Source: a virus (taxonomy: Duplodnaviria > Caudoviricetes). Taken from it: a stretch of DNA of 64,000 bases. The first letter of the stretch is position 1, and every line of letters starts with the position of its first letter. A program made the position numbers and the translations under genes. The notes beneath the pieces were generated by a model, which ran no database searches, had not been told where the DNA came from, and was given only the letters and a program-made list of their open reading frames with translations. The stretch is taken from the IMG/VR virus record IMGVR_UViG_3300013212_000088, positions 64,001 through 128,000 of that record. One strand, 5' to 3'. This document shows, piece after piece, positions 10,746 through 19,631 of this stretch.

Positions 10746-10775
10746 AAAAAAACCTCCCGAAAGGGAGGTTTTTTT
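10746..10775. terminator. Bidirectional rho-independent terminator
   Basis: AAAAAAA-CCTCCC-GAAA-GGGAGG-TTTTTTT between convergent genes. Confidence 0.9.
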
Positions 10776-11286
10776 ATTCTCTAGTCCAATCTACAATAAA
10801 CTCTTCATAATTCCAGTCATCGTAAGGATCTATTTTATCCCAAGTTTCTTTGACGACATAAAAGTTTAGTTTATTAAGTATACTCATAATTAAGCCATCA
10901 ACTATACTACATATTGAATAATATCTTCTGTGTTTTGAATCGATGTAATGTAGGGTGCAATATAAAATATCACCCACTTTCGATTCTAACACTACTTTTT
11001 CAATTGAAGAATTATTATCTTTTAAATGTTTATTGAATATTTGATAAATCGTATGTATATGAGAGTTTTTGTGTAAACTTTTAAAGAAAAATGAGAGCAT
11101 TGACCCTTCATATGCATTAAGAATTATTGCAACATCTTTATCATCACCCTCAAGTAAAGCATACATTTTACTTTCAGGGCTTATTAAAATGTGCTGTAAG
11201 TCAACTCTTAAAAGGCTTAACTCTTCAATATCATTTAAGTTTTTTGCCTTTATAGTTATTTTTTTGTTTGGTAAATCTTCCATCAA
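10774..11286 (-). CDS. Divergent bifunctional nuclease-like protein (DUF151 family)
   Basis: YALLEGDDKDVAIILNAYEG.ML...HTIYQIF......IEKVVLE...ILYCTL...CSIVDGLIMS..NKLNFYV parallels the DUF151 pattern, but the family D-x-R-P-S-D motif reads ICSIVD. Confidence 0.6.
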   Translation of the reverse strand: MMEDLPNKKITIKAKNLNDIEELSLLRVDLQHILISPESKMYALLEGDDKDVAIILNAYEGSMLSFFFKSLHKNSHIHTIYQIFNKHLKDNNSSIEKVVLESKVGDILYCTLHYIDSKHRRYYSICSIVDGLIMSILNKLNFYVVKETWDKIDPYDDWNYEEFIVDWTRE

Positions 11287-11687
11287 TGATTACAGCCTTC
11301 ATTTTTACAAGGCTTGCAGCTACCACAAAGTTTATTGTTTAAATAATGAGATGCAGCTACTAAAAATGAACCAAATACTAACACGACAGTAAATAGATCT
11401 ATTTCAAAACCATGAACTGATGAATGACTATGCTGTAATTTTCCAATAACAATTAACATGATTCCAGAACTTAAATAGGCAAATGTTTTTAATGATTTAT
11501 GCTTCCTATACCCAAAACATAAACTGCTAACACCTAAGATTGCTGAAAATACAAGTAGCCCCCATTCGAATGTTTCACTTACAAAAAGAGACAGACCAAA
11601 TACTGGGACTAATGTTATTACCAAAGGCATAACTAAGCAATGAATAGCGCATGAAACGCTCGAAAACATACCTACTTTATCTATCAT
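11283..11687 (-). CDS. MerC-family metal-binding membrane protein
   Basis: DKVG...S.SCAIHCLVMP in TM1, four hydrophobic helices, GYRKH loop, HSHSSVH loop, ASHYLN, and a Cys/His tail CGSCKPCKNEGCNH. Confidence 0.8.
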   Translation of the reverse strand: MIDKVGMFSSVSCAIHCLVMPLVITLVPVFGLSLFVSETFEWGLLVFSAILGVSSLCFGYRKHKSLKTFAYLSSGIMLIVIGKLQHSHSSVHGFEIDLFTVVLVFGSFLVAASHYLNNKLCGSCKPCKNEGCNH

Positions 11688-12301
11688 TTTAATTGGTAAC
11701 TCTTTCTATGAAAATGCTGAAGACCATGTTCAGCAACAGCTTCTTTATGTTTAGCAGTAATATAGCCTTTATTGCTTATCAAATCATACTCTGGATGTTC
11801 TTCATGCAATTTAGCAAGAACTCTATCATGATGTACTTTAGCAATTATACTAGCTGCAGCTACAGCTAATGAAGTTGAATCTGCTTTAGGTATCATCAAT
11901 TGAGGTTTTAAATTATTCTTGGGACCTTGATCAATTACATATAAATGAGGTAATTCATCTATATATTTGGTTGCTTTAGATGCTGCGCTTACCATTGCAT
12001 TTAAATTAGCTTCTTGTATGCCAATTTTGTCTATATCTTCTGCGGATATTTCAGTCACTCCATAAGAAATACAGCTAGTAATAATTCTATCGTAAAGCTC
12101 TTCTCTTTTCTTCTGGGTAAGTTTTTTAGAATCATTGACCCCTTCTAAAGTTTGTCTTTCATCTAAAACCACACAAGCAGCAACTAAGGGACCAGCTAAA
12201 GATCCACGGCCACATTCATCAATTCCAGCAATATATTTCCCGTATTTGAGCCTAAGTTCATCATCAAATTTTTTTAATTCAATATATGCTTGTGATTTCA
12301 T
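11684..12301 (-). CDS. rnhB: Ribonuclease HII
   Basis: IAGIDECGRGSLAGP, DSKKL, VIDQG, KADSTS..VAAASIIAKV..D, NKGY.T..H, HRKSY. Confidence 0.93.
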   Translation of the reverse strand: MKSQAYIELKKFDDELRLKYGKYIAGIDECGRGSLAGPLVAACVVLDERQTLEGVNDSKKLTQKKREELYDRIITSCISYGVTEISAEDIDKIGIQEANLNAMVSAASKATKYIDELPHLYVIDQGPKNNLKPQLMIPKADSTSLAVAAASIIAKVHHDRVLAKLHEEHPEYDLISNKGYITAKHKEAVAEHGLQHFHRKSYQLK

Positions 12302-14064
12302 TGCATTTCTTTCTTTGCTTTATCATGTATTTTTTTAGTCAAGAAATCAATAAGTTCTTTTCCAGATTCTACAAGGGAACTTAACAATTCAATATTTTCT
12401 GAAAAATAATCAGATTCAATGCTTTCTCTTAAATCATTAAGTTCTTTAATCTCATCACTATTTAATAATTTAGTATCAATCAATTCAAACAATTGGATTT
12501 TTAAAGATGTAAGCCAATCTCTCAACGAAGTTATTAATTTAAATCTTTCATCTTCAATTTTATTTTCTTCAGCGTCAAGTAACATTTTAGTCATTTCTTC
12601 TTCAGATAATGAACCAGATAATACCATGACCTTCTCATTATTGGTAGCTTCATCAATTGCTTTAACAGTTACGATTCCATTTGCATCAACATCAAAAACT
12701 ACTTCAATTTTTGGTGCGCCTCTTCTTACTGGTGGAATATTATCTAGCTTAAATTCACCCAAATAATGATTGTATTTTGTTTGTGGTCTTTCGCCTTGAA
12801 ACACTTTAACATCAACTGAGGTTTGATTATCTTCAGCTGTTGTAAAAACTTCTCTATATTCTGTAGGAACTTGAGTGTTACGTCTAATCATTGCATTCAT
12901 AACACCTCCTAAAGTTTCAATCCCTAAAGAAAGAGGAGTAACATCTAACAAAAATATCATCTTATCTGAATTGCCTGAAAGAACAGAAGCTTGAATTGCA
13001 GCCCCTAATGCTACAGCCTCATCTGGATTGATAGTTTTATTAGGCTTTTTACCAACCCACTCTTGTATTTTTTTAGAAACAAGTGGAATGCGAGTAGAAC
13101 CACCGACAAAAACCACTTCATCAATATCTTTAGCCTTCAAGTTAGCATCGTTAAGTGCTTGTTCAATACAGTCTTTTGTTTTGTTTAAAATTAATGTTAT
13201 TGCGTTTTCAAACTCTTCTCTTGAAACTACTACAGAAAGGTTTACTGGTTGCCTATTTCTGAAAGCAAACATTGGAATATTAACATTAGTGCTTTCTAGT
13301 TGAGATAAAGACTTCTTTGCCTTTTCTGACGCTGTTCTTAGTCTGGATTTTTGTTGATCAGACAAATCTTCTATAAGTTTTTCATTGTAATCATAATCAA
13401 ACTTTAAATTAAACTTATCTAAAATTATCTGACCAAGAATTTTATCAAAATCAGCTCCACCCAAACTAGTGTTGCCTGAAGTAGAAAGTACATGAAAATC
13501 TACTCCGTCAGACAATTTAAGTACTGTTACATCAAAAGTACCACCACCAAGATCATATACTAAAATTGTTGAGTCGTGAGTTTTATCCAGGCCATAAGCT
13601 AGAGAAGCAGCTGTAGGTTCATTAATAATTCGTAAAACATTAAGTCCAGCAAGTTCACCAGCAGCTTTCGTTGCCTTTCTTTCGTCGTTGTTAAAGTAAG
13701 CGGGAACTGTAATTACTGCATCTGTTACTTCCTGTCCTAAATAGTCTTCTGCGTCTCTTTTAAGTTTTTTGAGAATCTCAGCTGATATTTCACATGGAGT
13801 AAATTGTGAGTTATCAAAAACGTAAAGTTTATCGAATCCTGAAGACATTTTACGCTTGACTAGTCTGATTACTCTGTCTGGATTTTCTTCTTCAAAATCA
13901 ACAGCTAAATCACCAACCATGCGTGTAAGATTCTCGTCAATTGCAAAAACCGAGGGTGTGATTCGATTCCCTTCACAATTGGGAATGACTTCAGCTACAC
14001 CATTTTTTACATAAGAAACTACAGAAAATGTACTACCTAAATCTATGCCAATTGAAAGTCCCAT
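12298..14064 (-). CDS. dnaK: Hsp70 chaperone DnaK (short form)
   Basis: IGIDLGST, TVPAYF, INEPTAA, DLGGGTFDV, VGGSTRIP, NPDEAVALGAA, LLDVTPLSLGIET, FQGER. Lacks the ~23-aa subdomain-IB insert and the disordered C-terminal tail. Confidence 0.95.
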   Translation of the reverse strand: MGLSIGIDLGSTFSVVSYVKNGVAEVIPNCEGNRITPSVFAIDENLTRMVGDLAVDFEEENPDRVIRLVKRKMSSGFDKLYVFDNSQFTPCEISAEILKKLKRDAEDYLGQEVTDAVITVPAYFNNDERKATKAAGELAGLNVLRIINEPTAASLAYGLDKTHDSTILVYDLGGGTFDVTVLKLSDGVDFHVLSTSGNTSLGGADFDKILGQIILDKFNLKFDYDYNEKLIEDLSDQQKSRLRTASEKAKKSLSQLESTNVNIPMFAFRNRQPVNLSVVVSREEFENAITLILNKTKDCIEQALNDANLKAKDIDEVVFVGGSTRIPLVSKKIQEWVGKKPNKTINPDEAVALGAAIQASVLSGNSDKMIFLLDVTPLSLGIETLGGVMNAMIRRNTQVPTEYREVFTTAEDNQTSVDVKVFQGERPQTKYNHYLGEFKLDNIPPVRRGAPKIEVVFDVDANGIVTVKAIDEATNNEKVMVLSGSLSEEEMTKMLLDAEENKIEDERFKLITSLRDWLTSLKIQLFELIDTKLLNSDEIKELNDLRESIESDYFSENIELLSSLVESGKELIDFLTKKIHDKAKKEMQ

Positions 14065-14071
14065 ACAATAA

Positions 14072-14077
14072 ATTATA
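14072..14077 (-). promoter_or_regulatory. -10 box placing the dnaK ATG at about +1 (leaderless)
   Basis: The minus strand reads tgTATAATttattgtATG; no SD upstream of dnaK. Confidence 0.45.
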
Positions 14078-14079
14078 CA

Positions 14080-14436
14080 TTATTCGGGATTTTCATCAGG
14101 TAGCACAGTTCCTCCAGGCTTATAACCCTCCATTAATGAATGCAATACATCAGACTCTTCAAGTCTTTTTTGCATATTTTTAATTTCGTTTTTAGTTATA
14201 GGCTTTTCAGAGTTGATCATTGAAGGGTCTCTGTGTAAGGAACTTTTGTACTCATGAGCCATAGAAATTAATTGGACAACAGCAAAAGTGTCCTTACATT
14301 TTACACAACGCATGACAGCATATATCTCCACTTCTGATTTAGGAAGCCAACCTAAATGTGACTCCCTAAAGAATGGATGTTTGCAAGTTCTATTAAGACA
14401 ATTTTTTGGCTTTCCAACAATGGTTTGGTGATGCAT
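14080..14436 (-). CDS. Hypothetical Zn-finger protein
   Basis: CLNRTC ... RCVKC cysteine pairs; AGGCAGGT SD-like site. Confidence 0.7.
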   Translation of the reverse strand: MHHQTIVGKPKNCLNRTCKHPFFRESHLGWLPKSEVEIYAVMRCVKCKDTFAVVQLISMAHEYKSSLHRDPSMINSEKPITKNEIKNMQKRLEESDVLHSLMEGYKPGGTVLPDENPE

Positions 14437-14470: not shown

Positions 14471-14498
14471 TATTCTATTTCAATAAGAGTAATTCCTA
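14471..14498 (-). promoter_or_regulatory. Phage-specific promoter TAGG-N18-AGAATA
   Basis: Minus strand TAGG aattactcttattgaaat AGAATA, 34 nt upstream of the ATG at 14436. Confidence 0.65.
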
Positions 14499-14527
14499 AG
14501 GTTAAAAAGTATTACTTATGGTATATT
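14498..14527 (+). promoter_or_regulatory. Divergent promoter for the sORF and 243-aa gene
   Basis: AAGG-N18-GGTATA, which can also be read as an extended -10 TGgTATATT; shares the palindrome CCTAAGG with the minus-strand promoter. Confidence 0.45.
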
Positions 14528-14530
14528 ATA

Positions 14531-14545
14531 AACAGTAGTACTGTT
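14531..14545. repeat. Operator-like inverted repeat at the predicted start site
   Basis: AACAGTA-G-TACTGTT (7-1-7 perfect). Confidence 0.5.
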
Positions 14546-14608
14546 CATTGTCGAGCATTATTCTTCCAAAGATGGTTTGTTTGAAATCTATTTAAGGAGG
14601 TATTGGCA

Positions 14609-14682: not shown

Positions 14683-15414
14683 ATGAAAAACGCTATTGTA
14701 TACTCTTGTTTTTTAACAGGCAAATGGTATTCATTAGTATCTAATCAGCTAACTAAAATCTTCTCCTCCAAAACAGTGTTGAATGGAGGAGATCTTTTTA
14801 TTTGTGCTTCTGGTACTGAAGAAGAATACAAAAAACTACTTGAAATTATTGGTGAAAATAAAGCTGTTGTTTCTTATCATCCAGACACTAAATATGGGTG
14901 CGAGGCATATGGTTTTAAGAAGATGCATGAAATAAGCAAAGAAGGTTATGACTACATTTGCTTTATGCACAGCAAGGGTGTTTCCAGATTAAAAGATCCA
15001 ATGCCAGTAATTATAACTATAAATACTTGGCGAGCTTGTATGGAATATTTTGTTTTAGATAGAGCGGATGATTGTATTTCAGCATTACAAAACTTAAACA
15101 AAAACTGCGCCGGTGTGATGTTAGATGTTTTGAATTGGTTTAACGAAGATATAAGTTTTGAAAAATCTGTCTCGCATTATCTCTGGGCAATATTTCCAGG
15201 TAATTTCTTCTGGGTTAAATGTTCGTGGTTTTCTGAACAAAAAGAGCCTACATTTGAAGAAGACAGATATGAATATGAAAGATTTTTAGGAACATGTAAT
15301 GAAATAAACCCCTACTATATCTGGATTAAAAAATACTCAGAAGTAGGGGCTCATATGTCTTATTTTGAACCAATATATGAACAAGAATACAAAGATGAAG
15401 TAAAGCTTATTTAA
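14683..15414 (+). CDS. Putative glycan-modifying (glycosyltransferase/RgpF-like) protein
   Basis: YICFMHSKG, WRACMEYFV, GNFFW and DRYEYERFLG resemble a viral family related to rhamnan-synthesis proteins (from recall only). Confidence 0.45.
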   Translation: MKNAIVYSCFLTGKWYSLVSNQLTKIFSSKTVLNGGDLFICASGTEEEYKKLLEIIGENKAVVSYHPDTKYGCEAYGFKKMHEISKEGYDYICFMHSKGVSRLKDPMPVIITINTWRACMEYFVLDRADDCISALQNLNKNCAGVMLDVLNWFNEDISFEKSVSHYLWAIFPGNFFWVKCSWFSEQKEPTFEEDRYEYERFLGTCNEINPYYIWIKKYSEVGAHMSYFEPIYEQEYKDEVKLI

Positions 15415-17212: not shown

Positions 17213-17221
17213 AGCATAAAT

Positions 17222-17230
17222 ATTCTATCA
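17222..17230 (-). promoter_or_regulatory. Extended -10 promoter for the helicase
   Basis: Minus strand TGaTAGAAT, 9 nt before the ATG, just downstream of a terminator; no SD. Confidence 0.45.
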
Positions 17231-17237
17231 TAAAAAC

Positions 17238-17267
17238 AAAGAAACGGGAAATATTTCCCGTTTCTTT
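17238..17267. terminator. Rho-independent terminator formed by a perfect 30-bp palindrome
   Basis: AAAGAAACGGGAAAT|ATTTCCCGTTTCTTT, with T-rich runs following on both strands. Confidence 0.8.
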
Positions 17268-17283
17268 TCTGCATTAGGTAATT

Positions 17284-17733
17284 TTATTCAGGATCAGTAA
17301 ATGACATAGAATTAAACTTGTTTACAGCTACCGCAATAGCTTTTGGCTTTTTGCCTATAAACATATCAAGTGTACTCATGACAAGTGTTTGAATGTTTTC
17401 AACATCTGAGTCTGACAACTCAATGCCTTGATTTACAGCAGCCAAACGAATAAACCTTACAAATTGCTCGACTCTGTCTTCGTTAGAAAACTCACCATCT
17501 TTAATTTGTTCTAGCCCTTCAATCCAAGCGTCTACAAGCATAATGCCCTTTCTGCCTAGTTTTACTGCTAATACTGACCTAATTACGATCAAGGTTTGCA
17601 ATGCGACTTTTGTATCATTTGGTGCACTTCTTGAAAGTAGAAACAAAGCGACCATTGAAATAATACAAAGCATCCCGATTACTAATAGGCCTTGCCAGTT
17701 AGTAAGTAAAGAAGTTATTTGTGAAAGTTCCAT
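17284..17733 (-). CDS. Membrane protein, possibly an LL-H-type holin
   Basis: One N-terminal TM helix (GLLVIGMLCIISMVALFLL) followed by amphipathic helices and GIELSDSDVENI. Start moved to the ATG at 17733 (AAGGA SD, 2 nt after the upstream stop). Confidence 0.4.
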   Translation of the reverse strand: MELSQITSLLTNWQGLLVIGMLCIISMVALFLLSRSAPNDTKVALQTLIVIRSVLAVKLGRKGIMLVDAWIEGLEQIKDGEFSNEDRVEQFVRFIRLAAVNQGIELSDSDVENIQTLVMSTLDMFIGKKPKAIAVAVNKFNSMSFTDPE

Positions 17734-17735
17734 TT

Positions 17736-17948
17736 TTAACAATCCTTAGCAACTACATCATCGCCTTCATCAGACGAATCAAGGTCAAGATCAACATCAA
17801 GAGTTAGGGGAATTACAAGCTCGTCCTTAATTGGTTCTTGCTTCTTTTCATCTGCCCAAACCACTCCTTCATTAGATGCAACTACTTCGTCACCTTCAGC
17901 ATCTGTAAACTTCTCAATCTTGCCTGTGGCCCTCTTAATCATTGCCAT
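17736..17948 (-). CDS. Small acidic hypothetical protein
   Basis: GAGG SD; acidic C-terminus DVDLDLDSSDEGDD. Confidence 0.65.
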   Translation of the reverse strand: MAMIKRATGKIEKFTDAEGDEVVASNEGVVWADEKKQEPIKDELVIPLTLDVDLDLDSSDEGDDVVAKDC

Positions 17949-17959
17949 AATTTTTTACC

Positions 17960-18934
17960 TCAATTATTTAAAGTAGAAACATATTTAGAAAGAATATCTT
18001 CCTGTTCTGCAGTTAAACTGTTAGGATAATTATACAGAAAAGTAATAACAAACTCTCCCCTTGAAGAATCTGGTCTTGGGATACCTTCATTTTCAAACTT
18101 GAGTAAACTATCTAATCTTGTAAGCTTTTCAACCGTAACTTCTTTTTCAACGCCATTTGGAAATTTGATATTTTTCTTTGTTCCAACTAAAGCTTCAATC
18201 GGGTTTAACGAAAGCTTATAAAATATATTACCCTGGTTATCGAAATCAAAATCTGGATGCGGATTTAAATTAAACTCTACGATAGCTTTACCAGGCGGTT
18301 GGTTAGGATTTTCTTGATTACCGCCATCAGGAATTATAATTGCAGAGAAAACTTGGCCTAATTTTAAATGTAATGGTCTTTGGATAGTTTCATTTACAAG
18401 TCCATTTGCATGACATTGTCCACAAATAACATCTAATTTCCAACCCCTACCTCTACAATCATGACAAGGGCCAAGTATCTGTTCAAAAAAGAAGCCAGCA
18501 TGTTGCATTGTGTGCTTGTTCTGTCCAGATCCCATACATGTTCTACAAACCTGTTTAGCGCCAGAACCACCTTCACCCTTACAAGATTTACAAAAAACTC
18601 TTCTCTGGTACATAACATTTTTTATATCTTCTTTAAAAAGATCTTCTAATGACAAATTAACCTTAAGAGTTATAGGGCTGTTGAAAGATTGTGTTTTTAC
18701 TACGTTCCAAGAGTCGAAAGGGTTGTGATGCTGAGGAGGTTGGTCGTATCTACTTTTTGAATTGGGATCACTTAATACAGAATAAGCTTCATTAATTTGC
18801 TTAAACTTGTCCTCGGCATCTGGTTCTTTATTGACATCAGGATGAAACTTTTTGGATAGATTTCTGTAAGCTGATTTTATTTCGTCAGAAGTTGCGTTTC
18901 TACCAACTCCTAAAATTGCATAATGATCTTGCAT
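17960..18934 (-). CDS. dnaJ: Co-chaperone DnaJ (J-domain, Zn-finger, C-terminal domain)
   Basis: DHYAILGV, KFHPD, AYSVLSD, four CxxCxG/AxG repeats and a C-terminal GIP..GEF motif; the G/F-rich region is essentially absent. Confidence 0.93.
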   Translation of the reverse strand: MQDHYAILGVGRNATSDEIKSAYRNLSKKFHPDVNKEPDAEDKFKQINEAYSVLSDPNSKSRYDQPPQHHNPFDSWNVVKTQSFNSPITLKVNLSLEDLFKEDIKNVMYQRRVFCKSCKGEGGSGAKQVCRTCMGSGQNKHTMQHAGFFFEQILGPCHDCRGRGWKLDVICGQCHANGLVNETIQRPLHLKLGQVFSAIIIPDGGNQENPNQPPGKAIVEFNLNPHPDFDFDNQGNIFYKLSLNPIEALVGTKKNIKFPNGVEKEVTVEKLTRLDSLLKFENEGIPRPDSSRGEFVITFLYNYPNSLTAEQEDILSKYVSTLNN

Positions 18935-18940
18935 ACTTAA

Positions 18941-18948
18941 AATATACA
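18941..18948 (-). promoter_or_regulatory. -10 box placing the dnaJ ATG at about +1 (leaderless)
   Basis: The minus strand reads tgTATATTttaagtATG; no SD. Confidence 0.4.
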
Positions 18949-18950
18949 GG

Positions 18951-19631
18951 TTATCTATTTATTTTATTAAGTAAATCTATGATCTTGTTAGATGGGCAAG
19001 CCGCATTCTCACCAACCCCAACATCAGCATGTTGTCCTGTTACGCCCATCACGCAACCTGCAACTGTTCCGTCAGTGAGAACTAGCATTCCGCCAGAAGA
19101 TCCCTCAAGAATATCTGCATCGAAAAACAAAATATCTTGCCATGCCAAACTTGGAGCTTGTTCACCTAATGCTTGGTGAACATTAGTAATTCTTCCAACT
19201 GTAGCAGTGTCATGAAAACCCTCTGGAGATCCTAAAACTGCAATAATATCTCCAACTTCTACTGTGTCAGAGTTGGCAAGTTTCACAGCTGGGATGGTTT
19301 TGGCAATAGGTGTAGATAAAACAATTCCAGCATCATAATTTGGATCGGATATTTGAATTACCGCTGGATATAAACTTTCACCATCAAAGGATACTTTAAT
19401 CTCATGAGGTTTTTTTGTCAATATTGGAGGCACAACATGAGAGGCAGTGACTATGTAACCTTCCCCTACATGAAAACCACTACCAGTCCAACTTTGATCT
19501 CCAGCATCTACATAAATAGTGCAAGAAGACTGAATTGCTGTTTGAATAATTTTCTTTACAGGGTCTTCAATCTTTTGCCCTAACTTCATTCTCCATGCAA
19601 GAGAATCAGCGTTGAATGAAAACAAACTCAT
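18951..19631 (-). CDS. Trypsin-like serine protease (S1, HtrA-like core without PDZ or signal peptide)
   Basis: GSGF, VTASHVV (His), YDAGIV (Asp), LGSPEG, DADILEGSSGG (Ser). Confidence 0.85.
   Translation of the reverse strand: MSLFSFNADSLAWRMKLGQKIEDPVKKIIQTAIQSSCTIYVDAGDQSWTGSGFHVGEGYIVTASHVVPPILTKKPHEIKVSFDGESLYPAVIQISDPNYDAGIVLSTPIAKTIPAVKLANSDTVEVGDIIAVLGSPEGFHDTATVGRITNVHQALGEQAPSLAWQDILFFDADILEGSSGGMLVLTDGTVAGCVMGVTGQHADVGVGENAACPSNKIIDLLNKINR

Follow-up and report, generated by a model that had tools for sequence, protein, structure and literature searches.

A Phage Hsp70 Clade Lacking Two Nucleotide-Cleft Residues of DnaK, Encoded in a Conserved Operon of Large Freshwater Phages

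Here we analyze a 64,000-nucleotide stretch of viral DNA (the window), which comprises bases 64001-128000 of the 261-kb IMG/VR record IMGVR_UViG_3300013212_000088 (Caudoviricetes), with a focus on an operon that encodes an Hsp70-type chaperone. The record is estimated to be 73% complete. The G+C content of the window is low (~33%), and the genome is tightly packed (96% coding) with giant open reading frames (ORFs) of up to 3056 aa. A first-pass annotation, made from the letters alone, had described a five-gene unit on the minus strand at 10774-14436 and had interpreted it as a phage-assembled stress module. The unit itself is confirmed. It contains the following genes and flanking signals.

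14471..14497, minus strand: phage-type promoter motif AGG-N18-AGAATA, ~35 nt upstream of the zinc-ribbon start
14080..14436, minus strand: zinc-ribbon gene, 118 aa
12298..14064, minus strand: Hsp70 gene, 588 aa
11684..12301, minus strand: RNase HII gene, 205 aa
11283..11687, minus strand: MerC-family membrane protein gene, 134 aa
10774..11286 (TTG start) or 10774..11283 (ATG start), minus strand: DUF151-fold protein gene, 170 or 169 aa
10744..10777, both strands: bidirectional intrinsic terminator between the operon and a convergent tail-tube-like gene, directly after the last stop codon

For comparison we used 17 related phage genomes of 260-440 kb (the largest 441 kb) from freshwater and lakes, for which the Hsp70, the zinc ribbon, the MerC-like protein and the DUF151 family served as queries in searches for related loci.

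Results

The chaperone is a full-length member of the Hsp70 superfamily (PF00012, E 1.4e-176, 588.7 bits). Residues 5-571 align to profile positions 2-589 of 599, and the match covers the ATPase domain, the interdomain linker and the substrate-binding domain. The catalytic motifs DLGGGTFD, NEPTAAS and LLDVTPLSLGIET as well as the DVTPLSLG linker are intact. The protein stays below the equivalog cut-offs for DnaK (NF001413, 632.3 vs 648; TIGR02350, 612.8 vs 822.55) and also below that for HscA (TIGR01991, 503.6 vs 708.55), with the HscA models scoring under the DnaK model. No HscB or Isc gene was found among the 28 neighbouring proteins scanned.

In DnaK, the nucleotide cleft is closed by two salt bridges, K55-E267 and R56-E264; HscA, which has neither, frees its ADP 700 times faster and is independent of GrpE, and most HscCs lack the bridges too (Mayer 2021, PMC8215388). 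We therefore inspected these positions in an alignment of the 17 phage copies with E. coli DnaK, HscA and HscC, three Firmicutes-type DnaKs, 21 other bacterial DnaKs and four DnaKs from other huge phages. K55 and R56 are lost in all 17 phage Hsp70s, which have V, A or I in place of K55 and D or E in place of R56; the window copy has V55/D56. The canonical DnaKs in the alignment, the Firmicutes type included, all carry KR or RR here, and the two other huge-phage DnaKs that we inspected (LR756508 and LR756502) keep K55/R56. Additionally, the GrpE-signature loop is deleted in two subclades of the phage Hsp70s.

The exchange factor itself was not found either. A search for GrpE (PF01025) gave no match at E <= 1 in the window's own record or in five relatives that are 84-100% complete (at least 99% in two cases); the control genomes were all positive. 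The ORFs upstream of other huge-phage DnaKs gave no GrpE match as well. We considered the 152-aa protein p152 (17284-17742, minus strand) as a hidden exchange factor and rejected it, as it has an N-terminal membrane helix and no family match.

The phage Hsp70 shows a flat identity of 45-51% to bacterial DnaKs across phyla. In the tree, which has a bacterial sample of ~30 sequences and long branches, the 17 phage copies form one clade (support 94-100; SH-aLRT 94-99), and a branch with a support of 95-99 parts this clade from all canonical DnaKs and places it on the HscA/HscC side. The DnaKs of LR756502, LR756501 and Lak-A2 nest within Bacteroidota DnaK in the same tree. In one tree the phage proteins grouped with E. 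coli HscC (96/94), a placement that long branches make suspect. After we had included a further HscC-like sequence, which brought the HscC set to just two, and had left out the longest phage branch, the two groups became separate clades. The sister relation to E. coli HscC is thus not robust and was probably a long-branch effect. A 21-residue gap in lobe I of the ATPase domain, which we considered as an HscC-like trait, is not diagnostic, since Firmicutes-type DnaKs share it. Judged from these scores, alignments and trees, the phage protein is an Hsp70 and not a canonical DnaK; membership in HscC is not established, and HscA, HscC and the phage proteins fall into three separate clades.

A J-domain protein is encoded in the vicinity of the operon but outside of it, 4 kb upstream of the Hsp70.

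17960..18934, minus strand: J-domain protein (DnaJ) gene, with the HPD motif and four CxxCxG zinc motifs

With its zinc-finger and DnaJ C-terminal domains, the protein is class-A-like and soluble, and it is kept in every relative examined. The last residues contain no hydrophobic segment and hence no tail anchor, so that the protein is not of the DjlB/DjlC type. The four CxxCxG motifs are expected to hold two zinc ions, and the zinc ribbon one.

We next describe how the gene order is distributed. Among the 17 genomes, the Hsp70 is present in all 17, the MerC-like protein and the zinc ribbon in 16 each, DUF151 in 15 and RNase HII in 8. The full order zinc ribbon-Hsp70-RNase HII-MerC-DUF151 is found in the three genomes of the window's clade and in two deep relatives, L127 (also v32116; 378 kb, 100% complete) and L128 (347 kb, 99% complete). 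Ten genomes have the same order minus RNase HII. In L126, an unrelated 139-aa ORF sits in the DUF151 position. L140 has retained Hsp70-RNase HII-MerC only and lacks the zinc ribbon and DUF151. The complete 441-kb genome G329 has Hsp70-RNase HII-DUF151 beside tail-tube genes, its zinc ribbon lies 37 kb off beside UvsW and DnaJ, and no MerC-like gene is present anywhere in it. The operon is part of a wider syntenic block that all 17 genomes share: an S8 protease, an S26 signal peptidase, a trypsin-like protease, DnaJ, the 152-aa membrane protein, UvsW and then the operon, which converges on two tail-tube-like genes.

The first-pass annotation had suggested a synteny search, and the gene order indeed turned out to be phage-specific and kept, with the five-gene order in five genomes and three- or four-gene versions in all others. 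Its statement that these families are not neighbours in bacterial operons was borne out as well. We scanned bacterial MerC-like loci, one genome per species, which gave 80 loci with relatives at 27-43% identity; none of the 80 has an Hsp70, RNase HII, zinc-ribbon or DUF151 neighbour within 6 kb. At these loci, the bacterial gene order that the annotation had named as its refutation (simple block capture) was thus not encountered. The idea of a recent assembly from several donors was not supported, as the gene trees give one phage clade each for Hsp70, RNase HII and the MerC-like protein, far from the sampled bacteria. The assembly would therefore be ancient; a donor could be named for none of the operon genes. 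Taking trees and synteny together, we conclude that the five-gene order is old, phage-specific and inherited by descent. A functionally linked stress module gained no support either, so that the earlier interpretation holds only in part. Each accessory gene is individually dispensable: RNase HII is absent from 9 of 17 genomes, G329 has no MerC-like gene and a relocated zinc ribbon, and L140 has neither zinc ribbon nor DUF151. That no accessory gene has stayed in place in all lineages argues against an obligate five-part machine.

The RNase HII is clearly assigned (PF01351, E 1.1e-39, 136.9 bits vs a cut-off of 25.8; NF000595, 192.8 vs 167), and its motifs IDECGRGS, DSKKLT and KADS..AVAAASIIAKV are present. 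Seven phage RNase HIIs are monophyletic (100/99) against 17 bacterial ones, and the best identity among 301 Bacteroidota genomes is 50%. In the Hsp70 tree, rooted on the bacterial sequences, the lineages with RNase HII branch at the base, as does the window's clade, and two changes suffice to explain the trait. We conclude from this distribution, and from the phage copies forming one clade, that RNase HII was present in the ancestor and disappeared later. We reject a late insertion confined to the window's clade, since deeper relatives carry the gene too. As a separate observation, some Bacteroidota genomes (L099-L110) contain two to three RNase HII matches, and those nearest to the phage enzyme (44-50%) group apart from the Ferruginibacter, Mucilaginibacter and Lewinella copies.

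The MerC-like protein belongs to its family with PF03203 (E 5.5e-22, 78.8 bits vs a gathering score of 27.6). It has four hydrophobic segments, CAIHC in the first transmembrane segment (TM1), a His-rich loop and a C-terminal Cys cluster; the residues C13, H16, C17, C57, H63, C121, C124 and C127 are invariant. Of the phage MerC-like proteins, 14 of 15 fall into one clade (support 97). The recurring neighbours at the 80 bacterial loci are Fur-family regulators (26), CobW/COG0523 GTPases (10), SCO1/SenC (10) and TonB-dependent receptors (8), and MacB-type ABC transporters also recur. The neighbourhood of the window operon contains none of the mer operon genes merR, merT, merP and merA, and an HMA-domain gene (as in MerP and the MerA N-terminus) is missing from the whole 261-kb record. 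These contexts, together with the CxxxC motif, the His-rich loop and the Cys cluster, point to a soft-metal permease that would serve metal homeostasis and not mercury resistance. The earlier assignment to metal handling is thus plausible, yet the bacterial contexts argue for Fur-type metal homeostasis rather than for mercury. In the bacteria, a Fur - SCO1/SenC - MerC-like triad recurs in Chitinophagaceae and Ferruginibacter metagenome-assembled genomes (L018-L023, L026, L031, L050 and L054); in other Bacteroidota the order is CobW - Fur - Fur - MerC-like, and a MacB-type ABC transporter comes next. These orphan-MerC loci are an unstudied type of metal-homeostasis locus.

The window's copy of the DUF151-like protein has no Pfam match, and PF02577 itself is not matched at E <= 1. 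Its family is better recognizable: 16 of 17 members match PF02577 (best E 3e-7), including relatives at 37-47% identity to the window protein. An AlphaFold model (pLDDT 80) superimposes on the DUF151 structure 1vjl_A in Foldseek with E 4.7e-8, probability 1.00, TM 0.75 and rmsd 2.6. The family profile gave nothing against the sequences of solved structures, so that the fold search alone found this match. Invariant motifs of the family are ESMLSF, SHI and ESKVGD. The label DUF151-like is therefore right, based on the PF02577 matches of the relatives and the 1VJL fold match.

The zinc-ribbon protein has four invariant cysteines (C13, C18, C44 and C47) and an invariant H27. In the model (pLDDT 78), the ribbon comes first, then helices and finally a disordered tail. 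Among known folds, the N-terminal zinc ribbon of NrdR matches best, with Z 4.3 over 44 residues, which amounts to a generic ribbon only (VIA). We obtained no match in Pfam, PHROG and NCBIfam, none by Foldseek and no named cluster in Atlas. The family is small (58 clusters among 1.84 billion protein representatives, with members of ~100-130 aa), it has no member in GenBank phages, and those members that could be placed lie only in phage contigs. In 15 of 17 genomes, 15-90 nt separate the zinc ribbon from the Hsp70 that lies downstream of it, and its identity among relatives is 41-68% vs 41-65% for the Hsp70. With its zinc ribbon relocated, G329 has a different gene at this place (L194:8378-9061, minus strand); it encodes 227 aa with an N-terminal CxxC...CxxxC motif and overlaps the start of the Hsp70 gene.

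Finally, we analyzed the signals for expression. The first-pass annotation had placed a phage-type promoter at the start of the unit and a bidirectional terminator at its end, and both were seen. The motif AGG-N18-AGAATA occurs three times in the window vs 0.87 expected, each time just upstream of a correctly oriented gene; the two other copies precede the tail-tube-like gene (9699) and the gene for a 1347-aa giant protein (41782). In three other lineages (v47476, v21138 and v32116), it is found 51-61 nt before the zinc-ribbon ATG. At the other end, the terminator has a perfect 15-bp stem flanked by A7 and U7. Its dG is -20.7 kcal/mol (z about -6.3) for the minus strand and -21.1 kcal/mol (z about -6.6) for the plus strand, and none of 200 shuffles folds as well. 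A simple terminator scan had missed this hairpin because the stem absorbs the U-run. The bidirectional terminator is limited to the window's own clade and is present in v47476 with compensatory changes; the other relatives lack it, and the convergent genes abut instead.

The gene junctions had been reported as ATGA overlaps throughout. This holds for dnaK/rnhB and rnhB/merC. The merC/DUF151 junction is TTGA if the TTG start is used, or a 1-nt TGATG overlap with the ATG start. Among the co-directional junctions of the genome, 4-nt overlaps account for 19 of 206 and 1-nt overlaps for 32 of 206 (rough gene calls). The run of overlaps supports co-transcription but not a functional link, and it is by itself not unusual here, because this 96%-coding genome has many overlaps.

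Two further start signals were observed in the region.

14525..14554, minus strand: sigma-70-like site TCGACA-18-TATAAT, 11/12 matches
14072..14079, minus strand: TGTATAAT element, 7 nt before the Hsp70 ATG, without a Shine-Dalgarno sequence

Sites of the first kind are not above shuffles in the region, so this one is weak evidence. The second is a possible internal promoter for a leaderless mRNA. The form TGTA(T/C)AAT stands 6-8 nt before the Hsp70 ATG in most relatives, despite a protein identity of only ~55%. Similar boxes, TGTA(T/C)AAT or TAGAAT, occur 6-9 nt before the ATG of Hsp70 (14065-14082), dnaJ (18935-18955) and uvsW (17213-17235), again without a Shine-Dalgarno sequence. As the Hsp70 box is kept over such a protein distance, these boxes suggest leaderless transcripts or a phage-specific start signal.

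Some neighbouring features deserve mention. A strong 13-bp terminator-like hairpin is located at 17238-17267 (minus strand) between the gene of the 152-aa protein and uvsW, so that the dnaJ unit probably ends there. A 243-aa gene at 14683-15414 (plus strand), between uvsW and the zinc ribbon, is found in the window's clade only (57-87% identity) and is absent from all other relatives; its single match is weak and RgpF-like (E 0.0045). In L127 (2843-5929), the UvsW ORF comprises ~1028 aa vs ~600, and the match falls into two parts with ~1.2 kb between them and no break in the frame, suggestive of an intein or other in-frame insertion. The records L198-L200 (OR844995, OR846635 and OR847154), which bear Staphylococcus, Enterococcus and Listeria phage names and are marked UNVERIFIED_ORG, carry an ordinary Firmicutes-type dnaK; this is probably host DNA in the assemblies.

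Discussion

The reading that we favour, and that we hold to be probable if only slightly so, is a specialised Hsp70 that would work without an exchange factor and with the phage's own DnaJ, would be expressed with the virion genes and would have giant proteins as clients, the four neighbours being co-transcribed passengers. Given the loss of K55 and R56, the two cationic residues that keep ADP locked in DnaK, and given that no GrpE was found in the records searched, the Hsp70 most likely needs no nucleotide exchange factor for its cycle, in which it would resemble HscA and HscC. The phage's DnaJ is probably its partner, and its phage clients are probably few. The operon has the promoter motif of the tail-tube-like and giant-protein genes and lies between such genes; for this reason the Hsp70 is probably expressed together with virion genes, and the likeliest clients would be the very large phage proteins of up to 3056 aa, which are probably part of the virion and would need the chaperone while it is assembled. 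The neighbours would have tasks of their own. RNase HII may remove RNA primers or embedded ribonucleotides, and the adjacent UvsW helicase gene fits replication and repair. The MerC-like protein could be a permease with a thiol lining, and its substrate a soft metal, for example Zn or Cu. One may even think of it as a metal supply, given that DnaJ and the ribbon are zinc proteins, but this link is only a thought.

Several observations weigh against this reading. E267 is retained in the phage Hsp70s, and position 264 is variable, with E or D in some copies. Since the window's own record is only 73% complete, a GrpE may be encoded elsewhere in this genome, and the phage Hsp70 may also use the GrpE of the host. 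The deep position of the phage clade could reflect fast evolution and not age, because the bacterial sample is small. The promoter motif rests on three copies in the window, a number that 4 of 100 shuffles reach. The conserved TGTAyAAT at the Hsp70 suggests a second, internal transcription start, so that the unit may not be one simple operon. Finally, 16 of 17 genomes keep the MerC-like gene next to the Hsp70, and 4-nt overlaps are frequent there, a persistence beyond what we would expect of a passenger.

This last point leads to the alternative that survives best, even though we regard it as unlikely: a membrane-integrated system, in which the Hsp70 chaperones or works with the MerC-like protein, and RNase HII and DUF151 form the nucleic-acid side of the same response. 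Directly after the Hsp70 (or after RNase HII), the MerC-like gene often overlaps the gene that precedes it. The phage Hsp70 and HscC both lack K55/R56, and the phage clade is on the HscA/HscC side of the tree. HscC acts with membrane-anchored J-proteins, protects E. coli against Cd2+ and UV by a route that is unexplained, and has been proposed to chaperone transmembrane proteins that handle Cd2+ (PMC8215388). Arguments on the other side are that the sister link to HscC is not robust and was probably a long-branch effect, that the phage DnaJ is soluble and class-A-like and not tail-anchored, that the complete 441-kb relative keeps Hsp70, RNase HII and DUF151 without any MerC, and that E. coli hscC has no MerC neighbour. 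We consider it slightly less likely again that the Hsp70 constitutes a new virus-specific exchange-factor-free class which, with the MerC-like protein as partner, handles a soft metal at the membrane and has the zinc ribbon as dedicated adaptor. If a membrane Hsp70-MerC pair did exist, it would give a candidate client for the unexplained Cd2+/UV phenotype of HscC-type Hsp70s.

Alternatively, the zinc ribbon or the DUF151 protein could be a new co-chaperone, that is, a substitute for GrpE, an escort like the mitochondrial zinc-finger protein Zim17/Hep1, or a factor for client delivery. The ribbon gene occupies the place that grpE has in many bacteria and is conserved as well as the Hsp70, no GrpE was found, and plant UVR-DUF151 proteins were trapped by the chaperone CLPC1 (PMC8889267). 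We nevertheless judge this explanation to be quite improbable. The ribbon of G329 lies with UvsW and DnaJ, 37 kb from the Hsp70, and L140 has none. A search of 28 zinc-ribbon family members gave no zf-DNL or GrpE signal at E <= 10, and no zf-DNL-type structure is among the fold matches listed, the NrdR match being generic (Z 4.3). The conserved C-terminal GYxPGGTVLP tail, considered as an Hsp70-binding motif in analogy to LPPVK of IscU, has less weight, as distant family members lack it. Moreover, with the salt bridges gone, the Hsp70 might do without any exchange factor.

We give just as little credit to the view that the chaperone genes serve host take-over or counter-defence, as suggested for the DnaK/DnaJ of moraphages. 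Phage heat-shock proteins may overcome anti-phage defences, and a bacterial NLR-like sensor needs host DnaJ (PMC12619734). The operon studied here, however, shares its promoter motif with the tail-tube-like and giant-protein genes and lies between them, and the Hsp70 is old and diverged and not a host-like decoy. The capture of a ready-made bacterial gene block is very improbable: all families but the zinc ribbon are of bacterial type, yet we found no support for it, as 0/80 bacterial MerC-like loci have such neighbours, the Hsp70 identity is flat, the best RNase HII in Bacteroidota reaches 50%, and the zinc ribbon has no relatives outside its own small family, whose placeable members are in phage contigs only.

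Returning to the specialised Hsp70 with its own DnaJ, biochemical confirmation would establish a natural compact two-component system of Hsp70 and J-protein, tuned by a virus for few clients. Such a system would help to explain the folding of proteins with 1300-3000 residues in giant phages, and the ways in which an Hsp70 cycle can be tuned when there is no exchange factor. The constant pairing with a MerC-type protein, whose bacterial relatives reside in Fur-regulated metal loci, draws attention to metal transporters that have not been studied as a group, and it hints at a connection of chaperones with metals.

Relation to known systems

The classical hrcA-grpE-dnaK-dnaJ operon also has a small gene directly upstream of dnaK, and dnaK and dnaJ in one neighbourhood. 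In contrast, the phage unit contains neither grpE nor hrcA, the upstream gene encodes a 4-Cys ribbon, dnaJ is 4 kb off behind a helicase gene, and the downstream genes are unrelated to proteostasis.

With MerC of the mer operons (Tn21 type), the phage protein shares the Pfam MerC domain, the four hydrophobic segments, the Cys pair in TM1 and the cytoplasmic C-terminal Cys cluster. The TM1 motif of Tn21 MerC is CxxC. The phage motif is CxxxC, the record has no HMA gene, and the relatives reside in Fur, CobW, SCO1 and TonB-receptor loci.

The DUF151/BFN proteins (Thermotoga TM0160, which is 1VJL; M. tuberculosis Cor, which is Rv1829; plant BBD; and UVR-DUF151) have the same fold, and the window protein is a single domain of ~165 aa like Cor. 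It is only 14% identical to TM0160, however, and has no UVR domain. Nuclease activity of DUF151 proteins is disputed: plant BBD proteins were reported to be active, and Cor to be without activity (PMC3870250).

The closest parallels for the Hsp70 are HscA/HscB and HscC/DjlC (PMC8215388). The cleft bridges are lost, there is no GrpE partner, a dedicated J-protein is available, the clients are presumably narrow, and two phage subclades drop the GrpE-signature loop as HscA does. The differences are that the three groups form separate clades, that the phage J-protein is a class-A-like DnaJ with a zinc domain and not HscB or the tail-anchored DjlC, and that no isc genes are nearby.

Phage Hsp70 systems as such are already known. 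Moraphages, Lak phages and the LR7565xx huge phages are likewise large and uncultivated, mostly from freshwater or gut, and have their own Hsp70 and J-protein (Perez-Hernandez et al. 2025, PMC12619734). Seven of eight moraphage DnaKs are reported to form a clade within Flavobacteriaceae, which was read as transfer from that lineage, and MerC and RNase H each have 0 occurrences in that paper (PMC12619734). Within ~6 kb of the DnaKs of four other huge phages, tblastn with the window-family proteins as queries found none of the operon neighbours. The clade described here is different: it is separate and deep, lacks K55/R56 and has the zinc-ribbon, RNase HII, MerC and DUF151 neighbours. What is new is the GrpE-less phage Hsp70 with an HscA/HscC-like cleft and a constant MerC-type neighbour. 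Earlier descriptions present phage Hsp70s as host DnaK copied in recent times, whereas the Hsp70 of the window appears to be an old viral lineage, with a cleft remodelled as in HscA and HscC.

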